34,344 nt of DNA. Source: a virus. How positions within the stretch are numbered: position 1 is the stretch's first letter; every line of letters starts with the position of its first letter. Position numbers and translations under genes: made by a program. This document shows, in pieces, positions 1 to 34,344 of this stretch. A model generated the notes under the pieces. That model was not told where the DNA came from and did not search any database. It worked only from the letters and a program-made list of their open reading frames with translations. The DNA lies in the IMG/VR virus record IMGVR_UViG_3300031994_000321, one strand, 5' to 3'.

Positions 1-127
1 AAGACAAGATTGCACAATTCAAAGAAGACTAAGGTGCGGCATTGAAAAAGGGGCTGTAGTAATGCCCTCGCCTGAGCCCCTGAGCCTACCAGAGTGCAGT
101 GCTGGATGGCGACAGACCACGGGGTAA
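1..127. repeat. Terminal direct repeat copy 1 (identical to 34218..34344); circular-closure overlap
   Basis: The first 127 nt (aagacaagattgcac...gaccacggggtaa) recur base for base as the last 127 nt. An exact k-mer-sized end overlap is typical of a linearised circular assembly. Unique length is 34217 bp. Confidence 0.95.
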
Positions 128-5215: not shown

Positions 5216-5242
5216 TTTTGTCCTATAGTTGTCCGAAAAATT
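5216..5242 (+). repeat. Direct repeat A2 upstream of int (candidate integrase arm-type site)
   Basis: ttttgtcctatagttgtccgaaaaatt. A third TTGTCCTA half-copy lies at 5249-5256. Confidence 0.6.
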
Positions 5243-5243
5243 A

Positions 5244-5251
5244 TATCTTTG
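5244..5251 (+). promoter_or_regulatory. Bacteroidota-type -7 promoter box (TAnnTTTG) for int
   Basis: tatctttg matches TAnnTTTG and lies 20 nt upstream of the ATG at 5271. Confidence 0.5.
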
Positions 5252-5270
5252 TCCTACCCAAGAGCCATCA

Positions 5271-6533
5271 ATGATCACCTTCAAACCCATAGTCATCCAG
5301 GGCGGCAGACGAAAGGACGGGACGTGGCCCGTCAAAATCCGCGTCACCTTCAAGGGGCAAAGTCGCCGACTGCCCACAACTCTGATGTGTGTGGATGCAG
5401 ACCTGACGCGCTCGGGCAAGATCAAGAATGCAAACGTACTGGAGAAAGCCGCAGAACTTATCACCAGGATGAGGGCAAGCTGCAACCAGCTCTCGCCATT
5501 TGTGGTGGAGGCGTGGACGGTGGACGACGTGGTGCGATGGATACGCAAGGACTTGACTGCGGAGCAATGGAGGCTCGACTTCTTTCAATTCGCTGACGAA
5601 TACATCGACAGCAAGAAGGAAAGCACCCGTGCCGTATATCTTTCAGCCCTCCGCACCTTTGAGACCTTCCTCGGCAAGAGGTATGTCGATGTCAACGAGA
5701 TCACCCGCCAGATGCTTTTGGACTTCCTGGACTTCGTAGATGCAAGGCCGGTGATGCACCGCAGCAAAACCGGAACCCTTGTTGAGACGCAACGCGAGAA
5801 AGTGTCGCACGGCGTATCACGGGAATATCTCTCAAAACTATCCCACATCTACGGCAAGGCGAAATTCCGGTACAATGATGAGGACAGCGGTATCATCCGC
5901 ATACCCCGTAATCCCTTCGCAGGGCTGACGGGAAAAGAATACCCTCACAATGGTCAGCCGAGCCTCGGCGTTGAGGTGATGCAGAAGATTATAGATTGGG
6001 AGCCGCAGGACTGGATCGAGGAGATAGCGCAGGCGGCATTCCTTTTCTCGTTCGGCACGATGGGGGCAAACCTTACTGACATGCGGAGCCAGGTAGATCC
6101 TCCAACGGACGGAATATGGGTCTACAATCGACGCAAGACTGCCGACAGACGCGTCGACCGTGCCGAGGTAAGGGTTCGCATCCCTGAACAGATATCGCCT
6201 TTTGTAGCGAAACTGCGTGGCCCGCAGGGGCGATCGGGAAAGTGGCTCGGAGCCCTGCAAAGATGGAGCCGTGACAATTCGGCAACGCTGATGATAAACA
6301 TGGCCCTGCGGAGGTGGGCGGAACGCGAAGGCATCAAACCCTTCACCTTCTATGCGGCACGACATACCTGGGCAACATTGGCGCGAAGCGCGGGAGTCGA
6401 GAAGGCTACCGTTGACGAAGCATTGGCTCACATCGGTGACTACCGCATTGCGGATATATACGCGGAGCGCAACTGGTCTCTCGCCTGGGCAGCGAATGAC
6501 AAGGTGATGGCACTATTCAGATGGCCTTTGTGA
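5271..6533 (+). CDS. int: Tyrosine recombinase / phage integrase (Bacteroides type)
   Basis: The N-terminus MITFKPIVIQGGRRKDGTWPVKIRVTFKG is the typical arm-binding domain start. The C-terminal box is ARHTWATLA...LAHIGDYRIADIYAE (R-H...H...Y). The start is moved from the track's 5229 to the ATG at 5271. Confidence 0.9.
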   Translation: MITFKPIVIQGGRRKDGTWPVKIRVTFKGQSRRLPTTLMCVDADLTRSGKIKNANVLEKAAELITRMRASCNQLSPFVVEAWTVDDVVRWIRKDLTAEQWRLDFFQFADEYIDSKKESTRAVYLSALRTFETFLGKRYVDVNEITRQMLLDFLDFVDARPVMHRSKTGTLVETQREKVSHGVSREYLSKLSHIYGKAKFRYNDEDSGIIRIPRNPFAGLTGKEYPHNGQPSLGVEVMQKIIDWEPQDWIEEIAQAAFLFSFGTMGANLTDMRSQVDPPTDGIWVYNRRKTADRRVDRAEVRVRIPEQISPFVAKLRGPQGRSGKWLGALQRWSRDNSATLMINMALRRWAEREGIKPFTFYAARHTWATLARSAGVEKATVDEALAHIGDYRIADIYAERNWSLAWAANDKVMALFRWPL

Positions 6534-7979: not shown

Positions 7980-8170
7980 AAACGGCAGACCTCAACCGAC
8001 TGAGCAGGGCCGGCAGCGACCTTGCCATTGCGCAGGGAAGGCTTAATGCCATCAAGTGGGAGGGCGTGAGCCAGTTTGAATACGAGCTGCTCACGAAGGC
8101 TAAACGCCACATCTGCGATGCCCAGGATTATCTTGCAGACATCAAGAATATTCAGATTCCGAAGCCATGA
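7976..8170 (+). CDS. Hypothetical small protein
   Basis: The internal ATG at 7976 forms an ATGA overlap with the upstream stop. 64 aa. Confidence 0.5.
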   Translation: MKTADLNRLSRAGSDLAIAQGRLNAIKWEGVSQFEYELLTKAKRHICDAQDYLADIKNIQIPKP

Positions 8171-9111
8171 GTGATCTGAATGCAACTGACGGCTATATCG
8201 TCCACGGATGGATGGTGACTGAGCTTGGGCTGCGAGGGCCGGAACTCACCACCTTCGCCATCGTGCATCAGTTCTCGCAAAGCAAGGCGGGAATCTACAA
8301 GGGTGGTGTACCTTACATCATGGCCTGGGTTGGATGTTCGGATGTTTCTGCGCGGAAGTATCTGCATAGCCTTGAGAAGAAAGGGCTCATCAGATCTGTG
8401 CCTGGCGCAGTAAATGGAGTGCCTTTCCGTGATTATCAAATTCTTGATAATCATATACCCAAAATTCTTGGGGATACCCCCAAAATTCTTGGGGATACCC
8501 CCAAAATTCTTGGGGATACCCCCTCGCAAATCCTTGATAATCATACCCCCAAAATTCTTGGGGATACCCCCAAAATTCTTGGGGATACCCCCAAAATTCT
8601 TGGGGTAGATAATAATAGAAAAAAAAATAAAGATTTTTTTTTAGTGAAAGAGAAAATCGTTTCGAACTTTTTCTTCCAAAATTGGCGCGACCCGAACGGC
8701 GAGTTCGACAAGCTCGTCGCGTACAACAGCGGTCCCGCGGTCAAGAAAAAGTGGGACGCGATGTCCGACAAGGAGCGCGAGGCCGTTGCAAAGCTTTGGA
8801 GGCAGGAACCTCAACAGAGGCCTCGCTTCGATAATGCTTTCTTGTCTTACTGGCGAGATGTATATCTCAAACTCTACGGGATGGACGCTCCGGTCCAGAT
8901 TCGTCTTGCTGCCCTCGATGACAAGTTGAGGTATAATGTGCGGGACGGCAAGCTCGCCCTCACGATAGCCGCAGAGCTCAGGGACTACCTGGAGCAGCAT
9001 GCGGAGTCATTCAGGCCGATATTCGTGCGGCTGCAGAAAGAGAAGGGCTGCACGAAGCTGACTTATAACATACTAACCTTATCAGCCCCTGACAAGGCAG
9101 GAGCGCGGTGA
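8167..9111 (+). CDS. Replication initiator-like protein (N-terminal winged-helix) containing the origin iterons
   Basis: N-terminal wHTH-like LTTFAIVHQFSQ...ARKYLHSLEKKGLI. The internal PKILGDT x6 repeat is encoded by the iteron array. The gene layout resembles lambda O/ori. Confidence 0.65.
   Translation: MSDLNATDGYIVHGWMVTELGLRGPELTTFAIVHQFSQSKAGIYKGGVPYIMAWVGCSDVSARKYLHSLEKKGLIRSVPGAVNGVPFRDYQILDNHIPKILGDTPKILGDTPKILGDTPSQILDNHTPKILGDTPKILGDTPKILGVDNNRKKNKDFFLVKEKIVSNFFFQNWRDPNGEFDKLVAYNSGPAVKKKWDAMSDKEREAVAKLWRQEPQQRPRFDNAFLSYWRDVYLKLYGMDAPVQIRLAALDDKLRYNVRDGKLALTIAAELRDYLEQHAESFRPIFVRLQKEKGCTKLTYNILTLSAPDKAGAR
8437..8606 (+). repeat. Iteron array (candidate origin of replication)
   Basis: Six copies of the 21-bp unit cccaaaattcttggggatacc, at 8458-8520 (3 copies) and 8548-8606 (3 copies, the last truncated). 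Each trio is preceded by caaatYcttgataatcata. Each unit contains a cccaa/ttggg inverted repeat. Confidence 0.75.
8607..8650 (+). other. AT-rich tract adjacent to the iterons (candidate DNA-unwinding element)
   Basis: agataataatagaaaaaaaaataaagatttttttttagtgaaag includes A9 and T9 runs inside an otherwise GC-richer gene. Confidence 0.6.
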
Positions 9112-9619: not shown

Positions 9620-9916
9620 ATGAAAACAGATTACACAGGAAAGAAAGTGATCGTCCGCGCATACGGCGCAGGCGTGTTTTTCGGCACACTCAAAGAGAAG
9701 GAGGGCGACGAAGTCGTCCTGACGGATGCCAGGCGCATCTACTACTGGCACGGCGCATCGGAGTGCATAGAGCTGGCCACCGCAGGCTGCGACTCGCAGT
9801 CCAAACTGACAAGACCGGCAGCGGAAGTCCTCATCGAGAAGGTAATTGAAATTCATCCCTGCACCGAGCAGGCCATTCACACCATCGAAGCTCTGGCAAT
9901 ATGGAAGTACAGGTAA
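9620..9916 (+). CDS. Hypothetical protein (small conserved phage family)
   Basis: The pattern KKVIVRAYGAGVFFGTL...VVLTDARRIYYWHGA recurs in small phage proteins of unknown function. Confidence 0.65.
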   Translation: MKTDYTGKKVIVRAYGAGVFFGTLKEKEGDEVVLTDARRIYYWHGASECIELATAGCDSQSKLTRPAAEVLIEKVIEIHPCTEQAIHTIEALAIWKYR

Positions 9917-10647
9917 CAGTAACAGAGGAGGTACGCAGATTCCTGCTCGTTAATGACGGCTCCGGCGACGGCTCCGGCTACGGCTCCGGCGACGGCTCCG
10001 GCTACGGCTACGGCTCCGGCTACGGCTACGGCTACGGCTACGGCTACGGCTCCGGCTACGGCTACGGCTACGGCTACGGCTCCGGCTACGGCTCCGGCTA
10101 CGGCTCCGGCTACGGCTCCGGCTCCGGCTACGGCTACGGCTACGGCTCCGGCTCCGGCTACGGCTACGGCTACGGCTACGGCTCCGGCTTGAACATCCTC
10201 GACGGAAAGGCCGTGCATGTCATTGATGGCTTGCAGACCATCATCGAGAGCGTCCACGGCACATACGCCCGCGGCTGGATTCTCCAGAAGGACCTCACTC
10301 TTGGGCCATGCTACATTGCTAAGGTGGGCAACTACTTTGCACACGGCAAAACGCTCAGGAAGGCCCAGGCGGATGCTCAAGCCAAGTATGAGAAGAACAT
10401 GCCGCTGGCAGAGCGCCTTTCCGCCTTCAAACAACAGTACCCGACGCTCGACACCGAGGCGACGGCGGAAGACCTCTACCGCTGGCACGGAGTCCTGACA
10501 GGCTCCTGCCGCATGGGCCGTGACTCCTTCTGCAGGGAACATGGCATCACGATGGCCGACACCATGACGGTGCGCAGGTTTATCGACTTAACAAAAGACG
10601 CCTATGGCGGGGATGCCATCAGACAGCTGGCAAAACAATATCAATGA
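9901..10647 (+). CDS. Protein with an N-terminal [G/S]Y[G/S] low-complexity repeat and a globular C-terminal domain
   Basis: Residues about 19-96 are only G, S, Y and D (GSGDGSGYGSGYGYGYG...). The C-terminus (GNYFAHGKTLRKAQADAQAKY...YRWHGVLTGSCRMGRDSFC) looks folded. Confidence 0.75.
   Translation: MEVQVTVTEEVRRFLLVNDGSGDGSGYGSGDGSGYGYGSGYGYGYGYGYGSGYGYGYGYGSGYGSGYGSGYGSGSGYGYGYGSGSGYGYGYGYGSGLNILDGKAVHVIDGLQTIIESVHGTYARGWILQKDLTLGPCYIAKVGNYFAHGKTLRKAQADAQAKYEKNMPLAERLSAFKQQYPTLDTEATAEDLYRWHGVLTGSCRMGRDSFCREHGITMADTMTVRRFIDLTKDAYGGDAIRQLAKQYQ
9955..10188 (+). repeat. Hexanucleotide microsatellite-like array (ggctac / ggctcc / gacggc units)
   Basis: 234 bp built almost entirely from GGCTAC and GGCTCC hexamers. 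In frame, it encodes the GY/GS repeat. Confidence 0.9.
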
Positions 10648-10660
10648 GGATAGTTCGGCT

Positions 10661-10945
10661 ATGAGGAAAATAATGTTCAAAGACAAGTACGGCCTCACGA
10701 AGGCCGTGTTGGAGGGGCGGAAGACGATGACGAGGAGGATAGTACCGGAGTGTAGATCACTTGAGACCCTAATATTGACGGCCGTTGCACTTGTAGCGAT
10801 TGTCGCTTGGATGGCCGCCATCTGCATAACGTACGAACATGGCCACGTGAGTCTATTCTGCATATTGTTCGTCGGGCCGTTCGCCGTAGGTGGCATTATC
10901 GCCGCCGCAAGACTTATATACGCCATAATAAGAGAAAAACTATGA
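10661..10945 (+). CDS. Membrane protein with an ASCH-like N-terminal remnant
   Basis: MRKIMFKDKYGLTKAVLEGRKTMTRRIVP resembles the start of ASCH-type phage proteins. It is followed by two hydrophobic helices rather than the expected beta-barrel. ATG at 10661 chosen. Confidence 0.5.
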   Translation: MRKIMFKDKYGLTKAVLEGRKTMTRRIVPECRSLETLILTAVALVAIVAWMAAICITYEHGHVSLFCILFVGPFAVGGIIAAARLIYAIIREKL

Positions 10946-11904
10946 ATCGAAAAGAAGCAATCGAAAGAATTAAGTACTGCATAGGGAAACAAGCGTGGGC
11001 TTTGGATGAAATTGACACGGAAGCCCTGTATGAAGTAATCCCCGAACTGCGCGAGAGCGAGGACGAGAGGATAAGGAAGATAATTTACAACTGCGTATAT
11101 GAGTGCTGTGTTACTGGCTATCTTTTGAAAGATGATAGAGATAGTGTTGTCGCTTGGCTCCAAAAGCGAGAAGGGCAGAAGCCTTTGAAAGTAGGAGAAA
11201 ACGCCTACTTTGACCCAAACACAGATATGTGGTTTATTAAAAAAGAGCAGAAATCAGCAGAGTGGGATGAAATCCAATCAGAATTCAAAAACATCAATGA
11301 AGCATTTGAAGATGGGAAAAAGGAAGTGGTTGATAATCCAGAAAAATATGGCCTATGCAAGCCCACAGAGTGGAGCGAGGAAGACGAGAAGGTGCTGAAT
11401 AGCATTATAGCATATATTGAAACTGGTAATATCTACGCAACATCAAAAGTTAATATGAAAGTCTGGCTCAAGTCCCTCCGTCCCCAGTCGAAGCAAGAGT
11501 GGGACGAATTTGATGAGGACTGCTTGAAGCGAGCGATTTGGTATGTAGAAAATCCGGCTCCATCGGTAGTGAAAGACACTAATCTTGTCCTATGGCTCAA
11601 ATCCCTTCCAGGAAGATTCAACCTTCAGCCGAAGCAAGAGTGGAGCGAGGAAGATGAGAATATGGTTAAAATGATTCTCGGAGATTTAGAATGGGAAAGA
11701 AGAAACACAACAGTAGATAAAGATATACGGCTTTATGATGAGAAAATTGCTTGGCTCAAATCTCTCCGTCCCCAGCCTCATTGGAAGCCCAGCGAGGAGC
11801 AGAAAGACGGTTTATTCCACGCTTGTAATCGAATGACTGGAGATTATTATCACAATGCTCTTGTGTCACTCTATGAAGACCTCAAGAAGTTGATGGAGGA
11901 ATAG
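10942..11904 (+). CDS. Repeat protein (WLKSLRPQ...W-S/D-E-E-D-E units, at least 4 copies)
   Basis: ATGA overlap start. Repeated AWLQKREGQKP, VWLKSLRPQSKQEWDEFDEDCL, LWLKSLPGRFNLQPKQEWSEEDENMV and AWLKSLRPQPHWKPSEEQ. AT-richer than its neighbours. Confidence 0.7.
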   Translation: MNRKEAIERIKYCIGKQAWALDEIDTEALYEVIPELRESEDERIRKIIYNCVYECCVTGYLLKDDRDSVVAWLQKREGQKPLKVGENAYFDPNTDMWFIKKEQKSAEWDEIQSEFKNINEAFEDGKKEVVDNPEKYGLCKPTEWSEEDEKVLNSIIAYIETGNIYATSKVNMKVWLKSLRPQSKQEWDEFDEDCLKRAIWYVENPAPSVVKDTNLVLWLKSLPGRFNLQPKQEWSEEDENMVKMILGDLEWERRNTTVDKDIRLYDEKIAWLKSLRPQPHWKPSEEQKDGLFHACNRMTGDYYHNALVSLYEDLKKLMEE

Positions 11905-14576: not shown

Positions 14577-15899
14577 ATGGAAATTACAAGATTACCTCTC
14601 AATAAATTAGAGCAAAACACGGGACAGCTGCCAGGACTGCCCAGCAATCCTCGCACCTGGACGCAGACAGAGATAGACCGCATCGCCAAGAGCCTCAAAG
14701 AAACCCCGGAGCTGTTTGAGATGCGGCCAGTGATTGTCGTCAAGCATAAGTCCAAGTACATTATACTGGCGGGCAACCTGCGGTATGCAGGAGCCAAGCA
14801 AAACGGCGACAAAGATGTTCCCTGCGTAATCGTCCCATCAGACTTCTCAACTGATAAGATGAAGGAGATCGTTATCAAGGATAACGGCAGCTTCGGATCC
14901 TGGGACTTTTCTGCTCTTACAAACGACTGGGGTGATAACTCGCTGGAGGATTGGGGGGTTCCTGCGTTTGATATTCCGTCTGTGGGTGAAACAAATGGAG
15001 CGGAAGACGACGTCGAGCGCAAGCGTCGGGAGTTCGAGGAGCGCATGAAGGCGGGCGAGATCAGCGAAGAAGATGAGGAGTATCAGGCCTTCCTGGATAA
15101 GTTCAAGCTCAAGAAGACTACCGACGACTGCTACACGCCTGCCGTGGTTTATGATGCCGTAGCCAAGTGGGTGGCCGACACTTACCAGCTCGATCAGGCG
15201 AAGTTCGTGCGCCCGTTTTATCCTGGAGGGGACTACCAAAGCGAGAAGTATGAGCGGGGAGCCGTGGTCGTTGATAATCCCCCGTTTTCTATCCTCGCCG
15301 AGATACTGAACTTCTACAAAGAAAAACAGATCTCGTTTTTCCTTTTTGCGCCTACGTTGACGCTGTTTTCTTCTTCTTCTTCGTCTCTGTCTTCTTCGGC
15401 TCTGCCCTGCGGCGTAGCGATAACCTACGAGAACGGGGCGAGCGTAAACACCTCATTCCTGACAAACTTGGAGCCGAAGGACGTGCGCCTGCGCTCCGTC
15501 CCTTCCTTGTATCAGGCAGTGAAGGTTGCCAACGATATAAACCTCAAAGAACTGAGAAAGGAGCTGCCCAAGTACAGCTATGACCATCACGTCATCACTG
15601 CACCCTTCGTCGGCGCTCTGTCGCGGCTCGGTATCGACTTCGTTGTGCCCGTCAATGAGAGCGAGTCCATATCGCAACTGGACGCGCAGAAGGCATCAGG
15701 CAAGGCGATCTACGGCAAAGGGTATCTCGTTTCGGAGAGAGTATTTGCAGAACGCGAGAAGGCAGAACGCGAGAAGGCAGAACGCGAGAAGGCAGAACGC
15801 GAGAAGGCAGAACGCGAGAAGGCAGAACGCGAGAAGGCAGAACGGTGGGAGCTTAGCGAGAGAGAGAGAGAGAGAGTCCTGGCGTTATCGCAACATTAG
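14577..15899 (+). CDS. ParB-like N-terminal domain fused to an N6-adenine DNA methyltransferase, with an (AEREK)n tail
   Basis: The N-terminus (PVIVVKHKSKYIILAGNLRYAGAK) is ParB/Srx-like. The MTase motif IV is VVVDNPPFS. The C-terminus carries AEREK x6-7 and SERERER. Confidence 0.8.
   Translation: MEITRLPLNKLEQNTGQLPGLPSNPRTWTQTEIDRIAKSLKETPELFEMRPVIVVKHKSKYIILAGNLRYAGAKQNGDKDVPCVIVPSDFSTDKMKEIVIKDNGSFGSWDFSALTNDWGDNSLEDWGVPAFDIPSVGETNGAEDDVERKRREFEERMKAGEISEEDEEYQAFLDKFKLKKTTDDCYTPAVVYDAVAKWVADTYQLDQAKFVRPFYPGGDYQSEKYERGAVVVDNPPFSILAEILNFYKEKQISFFLFAPTLTLFSSSSSSLSSSALPCGVAITYENGASVNTSFLTNLEPKDVRLRSVPSLYQAVKVANDINLKELRKELPKYSYDHHVITAPFVGALSRLGIDFVVPVNESESISQLDAQKASGKAIYGKGYLVSERVFAEREKAEREKAEREKAEREKAEREKAEREKAERWELSERERERVLALSQH
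15747..15851 (+). repeat. 15-bp tandem repeat (gcagaacgcgagaag x6 perfect plus 1 degenerate)
   Basis: Perfect head-to-tail units at 15747-15836. In frame, they encode AEREK. Confidence 0.95.
15858..15876 (+). repeat. (GA)9 dinucleotide microsatellite inside the MTase 3' end
   Basis: gagagagagagagagagag, located 23 nt before the stop codon. Confidence 0.9.
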
Positions 15900-16220: not shown

Positions 16221-16654
16221 TGGCAACGAGACCGAAGAAACAACATACATACAAGCAGCCCGAGCCGCAAGGGTTCCTGGCTCCTGACTACCGCAGCCGG
16301 CCCGAGTACCACACTGCCCGCTGGCAGCGTCTGCGTAAGAGGTTCCTCGAACAACCCCAGCACATCTACTGCGTCCGTTGCAAGGCGCAAGGAAGATACT
16401 CGCTGGCCAAGGTTGTCGACCACATCGTCCCTGCTGAATTGTGTGAAGACTTCTGGGACGAAAGCAACCTGCAGCCGCTCTGCGAAAGGTGCAACCGAGT
16501 CAAGGGCGCGGAAGACCGGAAGCTGATCCAGAACCGCCACCAAGGGGTAGGGGGTCAAAATCTCTACGGCCAACCTCTCCAAGACCAATCCCCCGCCCTC
16601 GAAGACACACAGCCAAAATTCTCAAATTTCCCAAAAACCGACAAAAATGGGTAG
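16220..16654 (+). CDS. HNH endonuclease (terminase-associated)
   Basis: CVRCK...VDHIVP...NLQPLCERCNRVKG is the HNH/zinc-finger core. It lies immediately upstream of terS and overlaps it. Confidence 0.85.
   Translation: MATRPKKQHTYKQPEPQGFLAPDYRSRPEYHTARWQRLRKRFLEQPQHIYCVRCKAQGRYSLAKVVDHIVPAELCEDFWDESNLQPLCERCNRVKGAEDRKLIQNRHQGVGGQNLYGQPLQDQSPALEDTQPKFSNFPKTDKNG
16236..16266 (+). repeat. 31-bp exact direct repeat, copy 2 (inside the HNH 5' end)
   Basis: Identical to 15910-15940. Here it encodes KKQHTYKQPEP of the HNH protein. Confidence 0.9.
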
Positions 16655-17153
16655 ACCGAAACAGCCGCAGCAGCTGCTTGAATTGAAGGGCACGGCGAGG
16701 AAAACACGCCGCCGAATCGAAGCTATGGTCGGAATGAAGATCACGAACTTCGACCAGGTGGCTGCGCTCTGTGACTATACCCATCTGACCGATCAGGGGC
16801 AGCGCATATTTATCCGGCAATGCACCTTCTTGATCGGGATGAATGCGCTCCAGGCGCAGGATCTACAGCTGCTGCTGATATATGCTCAGAACTATGACAT
16901 CGCGTTGAGGTGTATGGAAGAAATCAACAGCGGAAAGGCGTGGTTCACACTCACCAAGAATAAGCGCGGGGAGATCGTCGCAATTCACGAATTTCCATAT
17001 CTACGTCTATTCCGCAAAGCCTGCACAATTGTCAACTCAATCGGGGGCAAGTTCGGGTTCTCACCCGCAGACCGCATCCGTATGGCGGAGCCTGCAGCCC
17101 AGAAAGAGAAGACTGACATCATGGATATATCAGCTGATGCCATTGAGATATGA
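16647..17153 (+). CDS. terS: Terminase small subunit (P27 family-like)
   Basis: The N-terminus is MGRPKQPQQLLELKGTARK and the C-terminus is GKFGFSPADRIRM, both typical of P27-family TerS. Located upstream of terL. Confidence 0.75.
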   Translation: MGRPKQPQQLLELKGTARKTRRRIEAMVGMKITNFDQVAALCDYTHLTDQGQRIFIRQCTFLIGMNALQAQDLQLLLIYAQNYDIALRCMEEINSGKAWFTLTKNKRGEIVAIHEFPYLRLFRKACTIVNSIGGKFGFSPADRIRMAEPAAQKEKTDIMDISADAIEI

Positions 17154-18838
17154 AACTTGATTACAGACAACGGATAGCCGACTATATCGATGCGGTGCAG
17201 ACGGGCCGAAGGGTTGCCGGGCACTATGAGGTGGCGGCAGTGGAGAGGCAGCTGCGTGACTTGCGGCGCCAGCGCACCGATGACTTCCCCTATTACTGGG
17301 ATGAAGCAGAGGCTATCCGTCGCTGTAACTTTTTCGCCAAGCTCCGCCACTGCAAAGGTGAATACGCAGGGAGGCCCATCATCCTCGAGGGCTGGCAGGC
17401 GTTCATAGTGGCCGTCATCTTCGGCTGGAAGCGCGTCGATAACAACTACAGGCGTTTTCTCCGTGCGGACGTCGAGACGGCCCGCAAGAATGGCAAGACC
17501 ACCCTCGCCTCCGGCATCGGCATCGAAATGATGTCGCAGGTAGAAAACGAGCCAGGTGCGGAGGTCTATGCCGCTGCCGTGGACCGCAATCAGGCCAAGC
17601 TCTGCTGGGACGGCGCGAAGCAGATCATTCAGAGCTCCACCGCACTGTCGGAGATCTTCAAATGTTACCAGTTCAGCATCGTTGATATGAGGATGGCTTC
17701 ATCCTTCAAGCCCCTGAGCAAGGACACGAAAAACAAGGATGGTCTCAATCCCTCCTGCGGCATCTGCGACGAGCGTCACGCCTGGAAAAGTAACGACATC
17801 TATGAGCTGCTTCGTACCGGCATGGGCTCGCGCAGACAGCCTCTGCTGTTCAGCATTACCACTGCCGGCTTAGATAAGAGCCTTCCGTATTTCGATGATT
17901 TGCAAAGGATGAAGGCTATCCTGGACGGCAACATCAGAGACGATCAGCAGTTCGTCATGATCTTTGAGCCGGACAAGGACGATGATTGGAAGGACGAGCG
18001 CACTTGGTATAAGGCAAATCCCAACCTGGGTGTGTCTTTCAGCATCGACTATCTCCGCAGCGAGTTTGAGGATGCAGTCCGCAAAGGTGGAGTCCGCGAG
18101 GTGCATTTCAAGACAAAAAACCTCAATATGTGGGTCGATGCTCCGGAGGTGTGGATTAACGAGGACAAAGTCAAGGCCTGCAACTACGGAACCGATGATG
18201 CGGCCCTGCTCGGTCAGGAGTGCTATGGCGGTCTCGACTTTGCGTCCCATGTCGATATAATTGCGTTTGAACTCTACTTCCCCACCTTGCCGCATAAGCC
18301 TGTCAAGAGTTACTACTGGATACCGGAGGCAAAGGTGGAGCAGGGCACAGATCTCGTGGATTATCGTGCCTGGAAAGAACAGGGCTGGATCAAGACCACT
18401 GAGGGAGAGGTGATAGACATTGACTATCTTGTCGCCGACATTCTGGCGATCTGCAAACAGTACAACGTCAAGAACATTGCCTTTGACCCTTACAAGGCGT
18501 ATCACGGCCTCATTCAGGGTCTACAGGCGGGAGGTCTCGACAGCATCCTTTCCGAATTTTCGCAGGGCATCAAGAATATGAGCGAGCCTACTAAGGAGCT
18601 TGAACGCCTCGTCACGGCTGGCGAGATAGATCTGATGGGCAACCCGATACTGCAATGGATGTTCCGCAATGTTACTCCTTACTACGACCCGAACGATAAT
18701 ATCAAGTTGTTTAAGGGGAAGGCCAGGAACAAGATAGACGGTGTCATCGCCCTCGTCAACGCCGTCGGCGGCTATATGGCCGAAATGGTCAATCACAAAC
18801 CGATATATCAGACGCACACGTTACGGATACTGCCATGA
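17150..18838 (+). CDS. terL: Terminase large subunit
   Basis: 562 aa with a Walker A-like ARKNGKTT. Length and order (terS-terL-portal) are typical. ATGA overlap with terS. Confidence 0.9.
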   Translation: MKLDYRQRIADYIDAVQTGRRVAGHYEVAAVERQLRDLRRQRTDDFPYYWDEAEAIRRCNFFAKLRHCKGEYAGRPIILEGWQAFIVAVIFGWKRVDNNYRRFLRADVETARKNGKTTLASGIGIEMMSQVENEPGAEVYAAAVDRNQAKLCWDGAKQIIQSSTALSEIFKCYQFSIVDMRMASSFKPLSKDTKNKDGLNPSCGICDERHAWKSNDIYELLRTGMGSRRQPLLFSITTAGLDKSLPYFDDLQRMKAILDGNIRDDQQFVMIFEPDKDDDWKDERTWYKANPNLGVSFSIDYLRSEFEDAVRKGGVREVHFKTKNLNMWVDAPEVWINEDKVKACNYGTDDAALLGQECYGGLDFASHVDIIAFELYFPTLPHKPVKSYYWIPEAKVEQGTDLVDYRAWKEQGWIKTTEGEVIDIDYLVADILAICKQYNVKNIAFDPYKAYHGLIQGLQAGGLDSILSEFSQGIKNMSEPTKELERLVTAGEIDLMGNPILQWMFRNVTPYYDPNDNIKLFKGKARNKIDGVIALVNAVGGYMAEMVNHKPIYQTHTLRILP

Positions 18839-26812: not shown

Positions 26813-29350
26813 ATGGCATACGCTGCACGTTTCCGCTTTCGGTGGCGGTCGAAAAATGATAATATCTATCTAATCGAGATCCTGCAGAACGGATACAACG
26901 GCAGCGTCGTGCAGCGTCCCCTGGGAGGGGCTCCGCAGCTGCGGCGCGACAAGAACGGAGCCGTCTGCGGCACGTCTCTCGAGTTCCTGGCACAAGCCCA
27001 GGAAGACGGCGAGTTCGCAGTGCTCTTCACCTCAAACCCGCAGGCCTTCCGCGTGGATCTCTACCAGAACGGCACGCTGATATGGCAGGGCTTCGTAACT
27101 CCCGAGCTCTACAGTGAGCCATATATAGCCCCACCCTACAATGTCAAGGTGACGGCTACCGACAACCTCGGGGAGTTGAAGCTGTCGGACTACACGGCAC
27201 AGGGGCGCGTCAGCATCGCAACCCTGCTGTCATACTTCTTAGGCAAGACCGGACTCTCGCTGCCCGTGCATTGGCTGAACGCTATGCACCCGTCATCAGC
27301 GGCCAGCGTCACGGCGGCTGATATGGCGGCATCTACGACCGTCAACCTCGACCATATGGAAGGCGACACTTGCTATGACGTGCTTGCCAAGGTGCTCGAC
27401 ACCTTTCACGCCATAATCGTGCAGCACAACTGCCAATGGCTCGTCGTCCGCGAGACGGACCTTGAATACCTCCGTAACGGCAACACGATCACGGCCCCTG
27501 ACGGCAGCACCTTTGCCATCGGTGACTTCGGGTCAATGGCCAGCAAGGTATGGTGGCCTGTCGGATATCTCTCGCAGACCGTGAAGCCCGCCAAGAAAGA
27601 GAAGGTCATCAAGGCTCCGAACAACTGGCTGGAGAACCTCTTGCCCAAGACTGCGACATCCGTGCAGAATGCGACCTACGAGGATGCCCAAGACGGCACA
27701 ACACCCTACTACGAGCTTGTGCCGTACAGCGGAACTACGGTCCGCACATCTTCCGTGGCATTGTGGTCCTCCTTCTCGGAGTTCGTGCCGACGCACGACC
27801 TCACACTCTCGCTGACGTTGCAGACCTTCGGGGTCATCTCGGGTCATACCTACGGAAAGAAGTGCGCTGAGGTGAGGGTCTATGTCATCGGATCCGACGG
27901 CAGCAGCTACATCAACCGCTATGTCACAGCGACAGGCGAATACTCGTCGAGCGTGGCAGCGGCACTGAGCATCGACGGCACATACCGCGAAACGCCCGAG
28001 ACTTTCCACATAAACGTGCCAATCAAGTCACTGATGGCATCTGCAGGCTACAACCGCATCTACCAGATACAGGTGACGCTCGTCACCGTTTCGTCGGAAG
28101 ACTCAATCAGCCGGATCCGGCTGTTCGAGTGGGGGCTGAATTTGCCCGAGCTAAACAAGGGCTATCAGGTGACGTGCATCCTTGCCAACGGAGCCCGCGG
28201 AGCCGACAGCCCCGTCGAGATCGCAGTGGCAGACAACACGGAAAAGGCCCTCGAGGCGGTCTTTGTCACCAACGGCATGAAATATGACATTGCCCTGGGA
28301 GGCGCAAGCATCGCGCAGTGGGCATCCGGCAATGTGCCATCCTTACCCCTGCTTGAGTTTCTTGCCCGCGACTACTGTCTCAGCATAGCGACTCCGCGTC
28401 TCTATATGGAAGGCGTTATCAACGTTCCGGAAGGCGAGGTGCTCCCGCTGCTGTTCCGTGGTGGTGGCCTCATCTACTGGCCTGAGACCTGGAACTGGAA
28501 TCTGTTAGAAGATCGGCTGCTTGATATCAAGATGCTGTCTCTTCCGGCAGCAGCGGTCCAGGTGACAAGCGTGACCCGCCAGGCGCAGGGCTCTGATGGT
28601 ATGATCATCGGCGGCGAAAGCACGCCCTCTGCCGGAGGTGGTGGCGGTCAGGGCACGGTGACGAGCGTGTCCGTATCGATGCCGCCGCAGTTTGTTGTAA
28701 CCGGCTCACCCATCACGTCAGAGGGCACAATAGAGATATCGCTGAAGAGTGGGTATACAATTATCACAACTGAGGCGGAGAGAAAATTCTATGCAGCTTA
28801 TGAATCCGCGCACACCCATAGCAACAAGACGACGCTCGACAACATCACGTCGACGAAGGTGAGCAACTGGGATGATGCGGCGACAGCCAAGCACTCTCAC
28901 AGCAACAAGAGCATCCTGGACGGCATCGACGACAACGACATCGACAAATGGGATGAGGCTTATGACAAGGCGCACACCCACGGCAACAAGAGCACGCTGG
29001 ACAATATCACCTCGACGAAGGTCAGCAACTGGGATGACGCGGCGACAGCCAAGCATACCCATAGCAACAAGACGACGCTCGACAACATCACCTCGACGAA
29101 GGTCAGCAACTGGGATGACGCGGCGACAGCCAAGCATACCCATAGCAACAAGAGTTTCTTGGACGGGATCGACACGGCAGACCAGACCTTCGACGGCAAT
29201 AAGACGTTTTCCAAGAACGTCACCGTCTCCCAGAAGATGTCGGCTGCGGCTCTCGTCATCCCTGGCAGCGCACCCAGCGGCTCCTACGTCTCCACCTCCG
29301 AGTGGTATATCAGCATAGACACATCAGCAATCAGCGGCAGCGTAGTATAA
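26813..29350 (+). CDS. Distal tail / fibre protein with C-terminal HxH repeat stalk
   Basis: 845 aa directly after the tape measure gene. It has a Gly-rich linker (SAGGGGGQG) and then five 27-aa repeats containing H-[TS]-H-[SG]-N-K. Confidence 0.75.
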   Translation: MAYAARFRFRWRSKNDNIYLIEILQNGYNGSVVQRPLGGAPQLRRDKNGAVCGTSLEFLAQAQEDGEFAVLFTSNPQAFRVDLYQNGTLIWQGFVTPELYSEPYIAPPYNVKVTATDNLGELKLSDYTAQGRVSIATLLSYFLGKTGLSLPVHWLNAMHPSSAASVTAADMAASTTVNLDHMEGDTCYDVLAKVLDTFHAIIVQHNCQWLVVRETDLEYLRNGNTITAPDGSTFAIGDFGSMASKVWWPVGYLSQTVKPAKKEKVIKAPNNWLENLLPKTATSVQNATYEDAQDGTTPYYELVPYSGTTVRTSSVALWSSFSEFVPTHDLTLSLTLQTFGVISGHTYGKKCAEVRVYVIGSDGSSYINRYVTATGEYSSSVAAALSIDGTYRETPETFHINVPIKSLMASAGYNRIYQIQVTLVTVSSEDSISRIRLFEWGLNLPELNKGYQVTCILANGARGADSPVEIAVADNTEKALEAVFVTNGMKYDIALGGASIAQWASGNVPSLPLLEFLARDYCLSIATPRLYMEGVINVPEGEVLPLLFRGGGLIYWPETWNWNLLEDRLLDIKMLSLPAAAVQVTSVTRQAQGSDGMIIGGESTPSAGGGGGQGTVTSVSVSMPPQFVVTGSPITSEGTIEISLKSGYTIITTEAERKFYAAYESAHTHSNKTTLDNITSTKVSNWDDAATAKHSHSNKSILDGIDDNDIDKWDEAYDKAHTHGNKSTLDNITSTKVSNWDDAATAKHTHSNKTTLDNITSTKVSNWDDAATAKHTHSNKSFLDGIDTADQTFDGNKTFSKNVTVSQKMSAAALVIPGSAPSGSYVSTSEWYISIDTSAISGSVV
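28811..29160 (+). repeat. 81-bp tandem repeats encoding HxHxNK...LD.I...W units
   Basis: HxH codons start at 28811, 28892, 28973, 29054 and 29135, an exact 81-nt period. Units 1, 3 and 4 are nearly identical at the DNA level. Confidence 0.9.
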
Positions 29351-30849: not shown

Positions 30850-33800
30850 ATGGAAGATCTGAAACCCATAAGGCGGCAGACGACAACGACTCTACTTGCC
30901 ACACTCACCGATAACGGAGTGAAGACTGACTGGCGCGATTTCAGCGTGATCCGTGCCTACATATATGCCCTGGATCAGCAGATGGTGTCCGGCCCCTGCT
31001 CGGTTGAGGTAGACAGCTCGGACGAGACCGTCCTTCGCTGCGTCTATGATGCCGGCAAGCCGCAATATCTCGGTCCGCAGAAACTCGTCATCTACTGCGA
31101 ATATCAAGGACAGAAGAACACCTACGACAAGCTGGCGTTCCGCTATGTCGCATCAACCGACGAGACCCTCAATGACGGCACGACGATCGCCGCCGACACC
31201 ACAGACGTATATATCACCGTCGAAGACGTTTCCACCTCCATTCTTTCCGGCGCTATAGCAGCAGCGCTGGATGCAGCTGAATTTGCCAACCGCACCGGCG
31301 AGGATGTCCAGGAGAGGGCGGACCAGGACCATACAAGAGCCGGGCAAGACCACACTCGCGCCGGAGAGGACCATACGCAAGCCGGGCAGGATCACACCCG
31401 AGCTGAGGAAGACCATACGCAGGCCGGGCAGGACCATACCCGAGCCGGGCAGGACCATACCCGAGCTGAGGAAGACCATACGCAGGCCGGTCAAGATCAC
31501 ACTCGAGCTGAGGAAGACCACACTCGCGCCGGAGAGGACCATACGCAAGCCGGGCAGGATCACACCCGAGCTGAGGACGATCATACGCAGGCCGCCAGCG
31601 ACCATACGCAGGCCGCAAACGACCACACCACCGCAGCGGCGGATCACGAAAAGGTTCAGCAATATGTAATAGATGCCGTTGATGTCAGTTTAGATAACGA
31701 AGAAGGAATCCCTTCGGGAACAGGATCGATATCCGGTGGCGTACTTTCCCTTAATTTTCATAATTTGAAGGGAGCAACAGGCGCAACAGGCGCAACAGGC
31801 GCAACAGGCCCACAAGGGCCGCAGGGAAACACGGGATCGAGCGTGGACTACCCCTTTGAAATCGTCAACAACCTTACCACGAATGACGCGACAAAGGCGT
31901 TGTCGGCGGCTATGGGTAAAAAAATCTACGACGATATTCTCACCGGCCCTAAAATAACGGCGCAAGAGAACGCAGGCACGGCTTCATCGTATTGGTATAA
32001 CAATAATGGCACGATAGGATATGGGGCATCGGGAATGGGATTGCACCGCGCCGATTATATCCCAGTCAATGTGGGCGACGCAGTAAGTCTTAATGTAGGC
32101 ATAGGCAGCGCAACGGTAGCGGTGGCATTTTTCTGCAATGATGCAGGCACAATAATCAGCACTATCGCCAAAACGGGCGGCAATACGCAATGGTCTGGCG
32201 GTGTTCCTGCGGGAGCGACACGGATATACATCAACTACCTCACGGGCTATACTTTTACAGTGCCCTCAACAATCGCCAAAATCAATGAGGCGTTGAGTGG
32301 ATTGGACGATGATTTGGAAACTCTCGACGACCAAGTCAATGGATATACCTCGACAACCACGGAGGCTGACGTTACCGCACCTTCTGGGGCTTGGGACAAT
32401 AGCGACGGCGTTGTCACGGCTATATCAAACGGCGTGCTTCACCGTGTCCCCGCAATAGATTTAAGCGGAGTAAAATCATTCAGCCTTACCACTACTCTTA
32501 GTTGGTCAATGGCTGCTGCCGGCTTCCTGTGCGATGATTTCGGCAACATCATAGAAACGATAAGCAGAACTGGGGAAACCACAACGGTTACGGATAAGGC
32601 AGTCCCCGCAGGAGCGACAAAGTTATACATCAACTACGCATCGGCATTCACTTATGCAGGATATTACCCCGGCATAGAAGAAAAAATCGAGGATGAGATT
32701 GAAAACCGCCTTAGTATAGATATAGAACTTCCCATTCTTGCTCCCTCGCCTCAACTCCCCGCAAATGGCGAGACCATATCCGACATCAATGCAGAAACGA
32801 TGACCTCGCAGAGCATACAATCGGCTATCGAGTCTATCATCGACAAACTGCCCACCCCCAACAAGAACTCATACCCCAACAATCCTCGTTACGGGACGGT
32901 ATATGAAACCATTGGCCGCGACGCATCCAATCAGTATGACATCAAGGCTTATGTGTTTACCAAAAGAAACCGTTTTTGTTGGCGAAGCGGCGCAGCCCTG
33001 TATGCGTGGGTAAATGGCAGCACTACATATTACACCGACCATCGTTCACCGATCGTTGGCGACGCGGTGTATAATAGTTCGTCCCGTGCATCTTCGGGAT
33101 ATGTTGTTACGTCGTATGATTCTTCCACTCCGGCTATATCGGTAAACGGGACGGCCTACACAAGAGACGATACCAAGAATGTGGCCGCAGATGAAATCTA
33201 TACCCAGTTAGAACTTGGAAGCACGACCGCGACAATATCATCATATTACAAGGACGGGAGTTGGGCGGGAACGGCCACCGTTGCTTCAGCCACGACACTC
33301 ACCCTGTCGGGGAAAACATATACCCGTTATCCGTCAAGAGACTTTCACACAGGCAACAAGGCGACCATTGCTTTGTGGGCCAACGAACACGGGCCGCAGA
33401 GCGATCCAAACGATGCAAGCGTTATTCTTTACCGCCTTGTTAAAGACTTGTGCCGTGGATGCAATGACAATCCCTTCCTTACATACCTTCGAGGCTATTG
33501 CAAGGTAGTGATTATTCCTGCTGCTAATCCGTGGGGAGTGAATATATACCAATCTGGTGGGTATGGCCGCAACAATGCCAACGGCGTGAACATTAACCGC
33601 AACTTCGACACCATCGGATGGGCCGCACAATCCGACACCAATAAAGGCAGTTATGCGGGCGACCAACCCGAAACGCAGTTTATTATGAATGCCGTCTTGG
33701 ATATGGAAGCAGACATCGCCATAGATGTCCATTGTCTCGGATATGTCACGCAGGCGAATGAGGGACGCTCACACTATGAGGGCGCAGTATCGGAATTGAA

Positions 33801-34217: not shown

Positions 34218-34344
34218 AAGACAAGATTGCACAATTCAAAGAAGACTAAGGTGCGGCATTGAAAAAGGGGCTGTAGTAATGCCCTCGCCTGAGCCCCTGA
34301 GCCTACCAGAGTGCAGTGCTGGATGGCGACAGACCACGGGGTAA
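34218..34344. repeat. Terminal direct repeat copy 2 (identical to 1..127)
   Basis: Exact 127-nt match to the window start. Confidence 0.95.

Follow-up and report, generated by a model that had tools for sequence, protein, structure and literature searches.

The window analysed here (the whole stretch of viral DNA, 34,344 nucleotides in length, IMG/VR virus record IMGVR_UViG_3300031994_000321) carries two overlapping genes on its plus strand between positions 9,620 and 10,647. The first encodes a small protein of the DUF6948 family, and the second encodes a protein made up of a short leader, an array in which glycine alternates with one other residue (Gly-X), and a C-terminal domain, referred to below as the C-domain (Table 1). 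An exact 127-nucleotide direct repeat occupies both ends of the window (1-127 is identical to 34218-34344), and these identical ends make it a circularly closed assembly of about 34,217 bp, which is the complete genome of a temperate siphovirus-type phage.

Table 1. Features of the window and Gly-X-only proteins of cultured phages (window coordinates unless a phage is named; aa, amino acids; nt, nucleotides; ORF, open reading frame)
Feature	Coordinates	Strand	Evidence or description
Integrase	5229-6533		part of integrase region
Replication initiator, winged-helix/DnaD-like	8167-9111	+	phrog_186 and phrog_6969 matches
21-bp iteron-like repeats inside initiator gene	8437-8605		repeat scans
DUF6948 protein, 98 aa, predicted Sm/LSm-like barrel	9620-9916	+	Pfam PF22253, E 1.1e-25
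Overlap of DUF6948 end with repeat-gene start, 16 nt	9901-9916	+	sequence
Leader + Gly-X repeat + C-domain gene, 248 aa	9901-10647	+	open frame, ATG start
Leader, residues 1-18 (MEVQVTVTEEVRRFLLVN)	9901-9954	+	short helix, conserved hydrophobic-F-L motif
Hexamer array, 39 x GGC-(TAC/TCC/GAC) = (Gly-X)39, residues 19-96	9955-10188	+	predicted disordered
C-terminal alpha/beta domain, 152 aa, unnamed family	10189-10644	+	AlphaFold2 and alignments
ORF directly after repeat gene	10661-10945		weak phrog_874 match, residues 2-34 only
TerS and TerL	16647-18838		
Ralstonia phage NK-7, Gly-X-only protein, 137 aa			annotated 'fibroin heavy chain-like protein'
Pectobacterium phage Koroua (and relatives), Gly-X-only protein, 89 aa			
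Iodobacter phage phiPLPE NC_011142 (L113), Gly-[Tyr/Ser/Asp] ORF, 81 aa	1164-1409 (record 46,045-46,290)		unannotated

The repeat gene and its upstream partner

In a preliminary description of this DNA, made from the letters alone, residues 19-96 of the repeat protein were said to consist solely of Gly, Ser, Tyr and Asp, and a codon count over 9955-10188 proves this to be exact: GGC occurs 39 times, TAC 22 times, TCC 14 times and GAC three times, with no fifth codon. The encoded segment is an unbroken run of 39 Gly-X dipeptides in which X is Tyr (22), Ser (14) or Asp (3), and all 22 tyrosines lie within G-Y-G. Tandem Repeats Finder places the array at 9956-10189, with a period of 6, 39.0 copies, 88% matches and a score of 356. 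Two further open reading frames that overlap it, one on the minus strand (9877-10542) and one in the +2 frame (9953-10192), are by-products of the repeat.

In an AlphaFold2 model of the protein, built with a 45-sequence alignment, residues 22-93 have predicted local distance difference test (pLDDT) values below 50, and the leader forms a helix at residues 9-15, with a mean pLDDT of about 85 over residues 11-20. All 152 residues with a pLDDT of 90 or more fall within residues 97-248, which bears out the earlier expectation of a folded C-terminal domain of about 150 residues. The ..I..FL.. motif of the leader is kept family-wide, including in members whose repeat has collapsed, and it is specific to the C-domain branch, as it is not present in the Gly-X-only proteins described below; this persistence and restriction suggest that the leader is probably a functional part of the C-domain.

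The array is most unlikely to be due to chance or to a collapse within the assembly. The leader and C-domain stand in one frame across it; its longest exact internal repeat is 47 nucleotides, compared with the 127-nucleotide overlap of the circular contig, so that an assembler with k = 127 could resolve it; and homologous arrays are present in hundreds of independent assemblies. Short-read assemblers do tend to break at the array, as seen from contigs of two other assemblies that are 100% identical to the window and begin 24 nucleotides past it. Six genome loci likewise have a contig that begins within the repeat or beside it, a short way ahead of the C-domain.

The obligate, overlapping partner gene directly upstream, with its predicted Sm-like product, was absent from the preliminary description. 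In the Sm fold, a helix or strand at the N-terminus leads into a strongly bent beta-barrel of five strands, and the DUF6948 protein is predicted to adopt a fold of this Sm/LSm type: when its AlphaFold2 model (mean pLDDT 92.5) was compared with the PDB by Foldseek, the top 50 matches were all Sm/LSm proteins (probability 1.00, best E value 9e-4, target-normalised template modeling scores of 0.6-0.75). The ATG of the repeat gene lies within the ATA-TGG codons of the DUF6948 frame, where TGG encodes Trp95, a residue invariant in the alignment.

This arrangement recurs throughout the relatives. The start codon overlaps the DUF6948 end by 7-19 nucleotides in 82 of 83 distinct loci (16 nucleotides in 46 and 13 nucleotides in 32 of the 83), and the start context in most of them is nnATGGAA, the ATG usually arising from the invariant Trp codon (nnA-TGG-AA), which explains the Met-Glu/Asp N-termini of the family. 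DUF6948 lies directly upstream of the repeat gene in all five metagenome loci and in 16 of the 17 genome loci (of 23) that have upstream DNA, the seventeenth having the reversed order; conversely, of the 80 closest DUF6948 loci in IMG/VR, 70 are followed by a Gly-X plus C-domain gene, and the others are contig ends or isolated exceptions. A start codon inside the DUF6948 frame, so consistently placed, is a signature of translational coupling, and the repeat gene very probably forms, with DUF6948 as the first gene, a conserved phage cassette whose two genes are translationally coupled.

Two unusual arrangements were also observed. In the locus with reversed order (L032, Bacteroidia bacterium MS495-25, 275-1016), the only such locus, DUF6948 lies downstream of the C-domain gene and overlaps its end; the contig begins just upstream, so its end may have truncated a tandem arrangement. 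Two tandem leader plus Gly-X plus C-domain paralogues stand behind a single DUF6948 gene in L006 (4288-5819) and in L025; those of L006 are 236 and 272 residues long and differ in their repeats.

The preliminary description had also placed the gene, as a real phage gene, in the early region just after the origin, and this is upheld, since the gene follows the iteron-bearing initiator gene in an early/replication operon that runs rightward. No plus-strand terminator-like site was found between about 8900 and 11500. Tail genes are also present in the genome. Rfam and tRNA scans of the whole window gave no matches, nor did a megablast search of the region against the phage collection.

Family members and separable modules

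With residues 97-248 as the query, 693 proteins were retrieved from a 90%-clustered database, and a C-domain-only profile matched 1279 clusters at 50% identity, 612 of them with E values of 1e-10 or less. The window copy is part of that profile, so its own score is given by construction; the 693 and 1279 matches are independent of this. In IMG/VR, two short peptide patterns alone reveal at least 321 DUF6948 loci. The earlier statement that [G/S]Y[G/S] arrays are rare in phages is therefore wrong. The genome loci come nearly all from gut or rumen Bacteroidales, including Prevotella, Segatella, Leyella, Bacteroidaceae, Cryptobacteroides and Alistipes.

The survey of N-terminal architecture covers the best 150 of the 1279 C-domain clusters. 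Of 232 full C-domain members, 217 carry the N-terminal Gly-X repeat, 9 are truncated and 6 have the leader without a repeat. The N-region (leader plus repeat) of the full C-domain members with a repeat spans 24-364 residues (median 84), and the repeat itself spans 9-267 residues across the family (median 57). Tyr makes up a median of 12% in the family, and 0% in some members, and the net charge has a median of -5 and reaches -42. The window copy is at the 99th percentile for Tyr (29%), the 5th for acidic residues and the 88th for length; as the Tyr-richest and nearly the least acidic member, it would be, judging from composition, the one most likely to self-associate.

The predicted C-domain consists of a five-stranded sheet at residues 106-149 followed by seven helices. 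It contains the motifs PCY.AK..N.FAHG.T and LTG(S/A)C..GR..F, as seen in the alignments and the profile search, and in the 45-sequence alignment the Gly-X branch has 20 invariant columns, including C137, H148, H196 and C203. No Pfam, PHROG, NCBIfam or PADLOC family was assigned to the domain. In a scan of 11 members at E values up to 5, only a weak match to DUF5678 was obtained, in 2 of the 11, which we read as a local beta-hairpin/helix resemblance rather than as family membership. In sequence searches of the PDB, the full-length profile picked up nothing beyond artificial Gly/Ser linkers and other segments of low complexity, and the C-domain-only profile had no match; in a Foldseek search of the PDB with the C-domain, the best E value was 0.4. 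In BFVD, a fold search retrieved four relatives, of which the close one bears the mistaken name 'Lamprin' and the three distant ones are uncharacterised.

The two parts of the window protein also occur apart. In cultured proteobacterial phages, the DUF6948 gene (its product 33-51% identical to that of the window) is followed by a Gly-X-only protein of 81-137 residues; these cassettes share with the window the upstream DUF6948 gene and, directly downstream, the hexamer-encoded Gly-[Tyr/Ser/Asp] repeat, but their repeat proteins are without the ..FL.. leader and the 152-residue C-domain. Cultured phages with the cassette infect Pectobacterium, Ralstonia, Iodobacter and Vibrio hosts. In the Iodobacter phage phiPLPE, the 81-residue open reading frame fills the 'intergenic' gap after gp84, which is the DUF6948 protein, and coincides with a published 210-bp (KMGCCG)35 repeat at 46,046-46,255, which Comeau et al. 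(PMC3391216, Table 3 and text) listed among DNA repeats, with the speculation that it is an attachment site.

The C-domain, in turn, is fused to BspA-type leucine-rich repeats (LRR) in the Riemerella phages CRP5 and CRP6 and in prophages of Myroides and Paenimyroides (Flavobacteriales). The homology is recognizable at about 25% identity (tblastn E value 2e-6, profile E value 1e-15), with the AHG and TG-x-C motifs shared, whereas the N-terminus is of the BspA-type LRR kind and C137 and H196 are not conserved. The C-domain corresponds to the C-terminal two thirds of the CRP5 and CRP6 proteins, whose genes are located in the replication/recombination region. No DUF6948 match was found at these two Riemerella phage loci, of which CRP6 has about 3.8 kb of upstream DNA and CRP5 almost none. 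The existence of both Gly-X-only proteins and LRR-fused C-domains shows that the window protein is a fusion of two separable modules.

Residues kept in both Gly-X and LRR-fused members include His148 (in A-H-G), F210, T-[IV]-R, Y-G and Thr-Gly-x-Cys203, where a helix begins. Conservation of C137 and H196 is confined to the Gly-X branch and does not extend to the distant LRR-fused members compared, and a CHHC zinc site formed by C137, H148, H196 and C203 was dropped for this reason. A papain-like Cys/His enzyme was likewise set aside, being without fold support. Judging from conservation, a Cys/His enzyme or ligand site is a reasonable guess for the C-domain.

Two details of the Riemerella loci are recorded here. 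The name 'ribonuclease inhibitor' given to the CRP6 (L009:3812-4420) and CRP5 (L008) proteins appears to come only from the leucine-rich repeats. Upstream of the CRP6 gene, a 98-residue protein (L009:3369-3665) with no Pfam match ends in DDDDLPF, an SSB-like acidic tip.

Length variation and selection on the repeat

The repeat changes much faster than its surroundings. In 600 pairs of proteins with C-domains at least 93% identical (median 98%), drawn largely from a few clades, the N-region differs in length in 92% of pairs, and in 92% of these the difference is an even number of residues; the median identity of the N-region is 65% versus 98% for the C-domain. At the DNA level, loci were grouped when the DUF6948 gene and the first 440 nucleotides of the C-domain were at least 97% identical; N-region length varies in 7 of 11 such groups, and all differences are multiples of 6 nucleotides. 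One group of 16 loci spans 90-432 nucleotides with 11 distinct N-region lengths, and one of 4 loci has N-regions of 72, 258, 312 and 450 nucleotides. The preliminary description had predicted in-frame hexamer slippage and had proposed a comparison of repeat lengths across related phages as a check; such a comparison among near-identical relatives supports the prediction. We are confident that replication slippage expands and contracts, in frame, a hexamer microsatellite derived from GGC-TAY, and near-identical phages can differ several-fold in its length.

One locus of the 83 (L056, IMGVR_UViG_2548877171_000001, around 2785-2985) is the sole case in which the C-domain frame is disconnected from the leader. 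In the C-domain frame its repeat reads 'MALAMALAM...', which reflects an error of assembly or else a frameshift within the array, as in a pseudogene or a phase-off variant.

Composition points to selection acting on the protein. Gly occupies 2491 of 2532 expected-Gly positions (98.4%), and the exceptions to GGC comprise 289 synonymous codons against 41 non-Gly codons, a ratio of about 7:1 compared with the 1:2 expected from single-base changes of GGC. Family-wide, Tyr and the six one-nucleotide neighbours of TAY (D, S, N, C, F, H) together account for 89.5% of X; within this set, Asp and Ser, which arise by transversion, are far more frequent than His and Cys, which arise by transition, and the second-step residues Ala, Thr, Pro and Val are nearly absent (Ala 0.7%; Gln is at 0.2%). 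The synonymous excess and the composition of X indicate that the array is not the result of mere drift, and in all likelihood protein-level selection keeps Gly at alternate positions and holds X largely to Tyr, Ser and Asp. By its appearance, the unit descends from a Gly-Tyr hexamer that was altered by point mutation, reshuffled by slippage and selected for Gly plus Tyr/Ser/Asp/Asn.

These observations bear on two explanations that assign the repeat no role as a protein segment. In the first, it would be a DNA-level element (an attachment site, an origin element or a protein-binding array) or an assembly artefact, with coding incidental; in its favour, the homologous phiPLPE (KMGCCG)35 array has been described purely at the DNA level, with an attachment site suggested as its role (PMC3391216), and contigs often break at the array. 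Against it, 82 of the 83 distinct loci keep the frame from leader to C-domain, arrays change length only by multiples of 6 nucleotides, GGT and GGA replace GGC in relatives with Gly retained, the window has its integrase region and iteron origin elsewhere, and no exact internal repeat exceeds 47 nucleotides. With the kept frame, the synonymous Gly codons and the 6-nucleotide steps essentially excluding a DNA-level element or an assembly artefact, we regard this explanation as extremely improbable.

The second takes the repeat to be a selfish microsatellite tolerated in a permissive loop or linker, constrained only to stay in frame, soluble and unstructured, and having no function with the Sm-like protein. 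A length that ranges over 9-267 residues in the family and varies freely among near-identical phages is what such a neutral spacer would show; the X residues represent almost exactly the one-step mutational neighbourhood of the Tyr codon, and the leader motif survives repeat loss. Purifying selection on Gly (289 synonymous versus 41 non-synonymous codons) is not expected of it, however, and neither is the near exclusion of Ala, Thr, Pro and Val, which are one-step neighbours of the Ser and Asp codons. The repeat is also kept in 94% of full-length C-domain proteins, and Gly-X-only proteins are kept beside DUF6948 in distant Proteobacteria phages, which argues that the repeat itself is the conserved partner. 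A neutral spacer is thus unlikely, if still to be taken seriously.

Possible function of the cassette

The mechanism that we favour has an analogue in known Sm-type proteins. The Gly-X segment would be a flexible, multivalent tether or tail, studded with Tyr and Asp, that acts with the Sm-like protein, and the two together may act on RNA or single-stranded nucleic acid early in infection. Members of the Sm/LSm/Hfq group carry low-complexity tails in cis, such as the Arg-Gly dipeptide repeats of SmD1, SmD3 and SmB and the acidic or Gly-rich C-terminal domains of Hfq, whose acidic tail is thought to mimic nucleic acid; in the phages an analogous tail would be supplied in trans. What is shared is the Sm fold (predicted in the phage) together with a disordered dipeptide-repeat or Gly-rich segment. 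The phage system differs in that the repeat is on a separate, translationally coupled protein and is Gly-Tyr/Ser/Asp rather than Arg-Gly, and in that the Sm fold of DUF6948 is known from predicted structure alone. In the fusion form found in the window, the tether would bring the C-domain to the Sm-like complex, and the C-domain itself may be an enzyme, or a module for binding, with the universally kept His148 and Cys203 at its core. Taken by itself, this mechanism of a Gly-X tail that works with the Sm-like protein and tethers the C-domain to the complex is a tentative proposal, plausible but short of probable; the explanation as a whole, in which the described cassette and the mechanism are blended, is one toward which the evidence leans slightly.

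Several points weigh against this proposal. Gene adjacency and overlap prove co-expression, not complex formation, and the Sm-like assignment comes from a predicted structure with a modest Foldseek E value (about 1e-3). In the Riemerella phages, the C-domain stands without an Sm-like neighbour, so its function need not involve one, and a possible catalytic role of His148 and Cys203 is based on conservation. The repeat is reduced to a few units in some near-identical phages (N-region of 72-90 nucleotides) and is missing in 6 of the 232 full-length members, from which it follows that repeat length, and perhaps presence, is weakly constrained. Length differences taken from short-read data could partly be assembly error, though the strict multiple-of-6 pattern and the kept frames indicate that this is not their main cause.

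The preliminary description had compared the repeat to FUS and had suggested a phase-separating domain, with condensates or hydrogels organising phage replication or host take-over and slippage tuning their material properties. The low-complexity domains of FUS, EWS and TAF15 share with the phage repeat predicted or known disorder, dominance of Gly, Ser and Tyr, the flanking of every Tyr by Gly or Ser, and a link to an RNA-binding protein, which in the phage is putative and encoded by the neighbouring gene. The density of Tyr motifs in the window also stands, with 22 G-Y-G motifs in 78 residues that are predicted to be disordered; the G-Y-G density is roughly twice the [G/S]Y[G/S] density of the FUS low-complexity domain. 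In the stickers-and-spacers view of FUS-type domains, evenly spaced Tyr in Gly/Ser spacers favours phase separation, and the even spacing of Tyr here fits that general picture. Sm/LSm proteins with low-complexity tails are, moreover, classic components of ribonucleoprotein (RNP) granules, the phage partner has a predicted Sm-like fold, and the gene is in the early/replication operon.

The FUS likeness fails in other respects. Instead of an SYGQ-type composition with irregular Gln/Thr/Pro spacers, the window array holds only Gly, Tyr, Ser and Asp at a strict period of two residues, and Gln, Thr and Pro are all lacking; the family as a whole uses Asp as its third main X residue; there is no homology; and the putative RNA-binding partner is on a separate polypeptide. 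Most relatives are Tyr-poor and more acidic than the window copy (Tyr median 12%, in some 0%; net charge median -5, down to -42), and the array can collapse to a few units in near-identical phages, so that Tyr-driven condensation cannot be a family-wide function. We consider FUS-like phase separation to be distinctly unlikely as the explanation; it is compatible with the tether mechanism and would be most plausible for the Tyr-rich window copy.

A broader version of the idea is a two-part, RNP-granule-like system that would occur in phages from several bacterial phyla, in which a Sm-like ring would bind RNA, the Gly-Tyr/Ser/Asp protein would serve as its multivalent sticky tail and, in phages of Bacteroidales, the tail would be fused to a Cys/His effector. 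The resulting condensate or higher-order assembly would have its size or material state re-tuned from generation to generation by slippage as a heritable, reversible rheostat. We offer this as a speculation that is rather improbable in its full form.

The fast evolution of the repeat relative to its flanks (median identity of 65% versus 98%) also invites an arms-race interpretation, in which the repeat or the C-domain would be a decoy or inhibitor of a host defence or other host protein, changing under diversifying selection, with LRR and Gly-X as alternative targeting modules of one effector. Fusion of the C-domain to protein-binding leucine-rich repeats in other phages, tandem paralogues in some phages (L006, L025) and the early-operon position would all suit such a role. 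Slippage alone yields variation of this kind, however, so it need not be adaptive, and searches gave no PADLOC defence-model match and no match to a known anti-defence family. We judge an arms-race module to be very unlikely, and return to the tethered Sm-like cassette as the preferred explanation.

Structural proteins rich in Gly and Tyr provide a further comparison; automated annotators name relatives 'Lamprin', 'fibroin heavy chain-like' or hypothetical. In silk fibroin heavy chain, lamprin and plant glycine-rich proteins, too, Gly alternates with another residue that can be Ser or Tyr; GAGAGS and GAGAGY blocks are the fibroin examples. The phage protein differs from these in being an intracellular early-gene product with no homology to them and with Asp frequent in the family. 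X in fibroin is dominated by Ala and Ser, whereas the window array has no Ala and Ala accounts for 0.7% of X in the family. The phage repeat is predicted to be disordered, with no beta structure in the AlphaFold2 model, and silk fibroin forms beta-sheet crystallites, although such a model says little either way about repeats.

In the searchable literature, no paper was found for the term DUF6948, and nothing relevant was found for glycine-tyrosine repeats with phage, Sm-like with bacteriophage, or 'fibroin heavy chain-like'; the sole published trace found is the phiPLPE DNA repeat (PMC3391216). The ingredients are of known kinds, namely, an Sm-like protein, a Gly/Tyr low-complexity region and microsatellite slippage, and it is their combination, together with the C-domain, that is not described in the literature searched, even though the cassette abounds in uncultured phages from gut and rumen. 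This raises the questions of whether bacterial viruses use Sm-type proteins with low-complexity partners in the manner of eukaryotic RNP granules, whether microsatellite slippage makes disordered length a fast, reversible evolutionary dial, and what the nature is of a new 150-residue fold with a conserved His/Cys pair that phages attach to Gly-X or LRR modules. On the practical side, assemblies from short reads break at these arrays, and annotation often misses the genes.

Finally, some features elsewhere in the window deserve mention. The open reading frame directly after the repeat gene (10661-10945) has an ASCH-like N-terminal motif and is then hydrophobic; it is overlapped by an open reading frame of 365 residues (10807-11904) with internal repeats at a spacing of 141-270 nucleotides, and this stretch is more AT-rich (G+C fraction of 0.44) than its surroundings. 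Other in-frame arrays are present at the end of the ParB-methyltransferase gene, where six perfect 15-nucleotide units and a (GA)9 run occupy 15747-15844, and in two large tail-region genes (845 and 1084 residues), which contain 81-nucleotide and 21/63/105-nucleotide arrays at 28810-29153 and 31319-31625.

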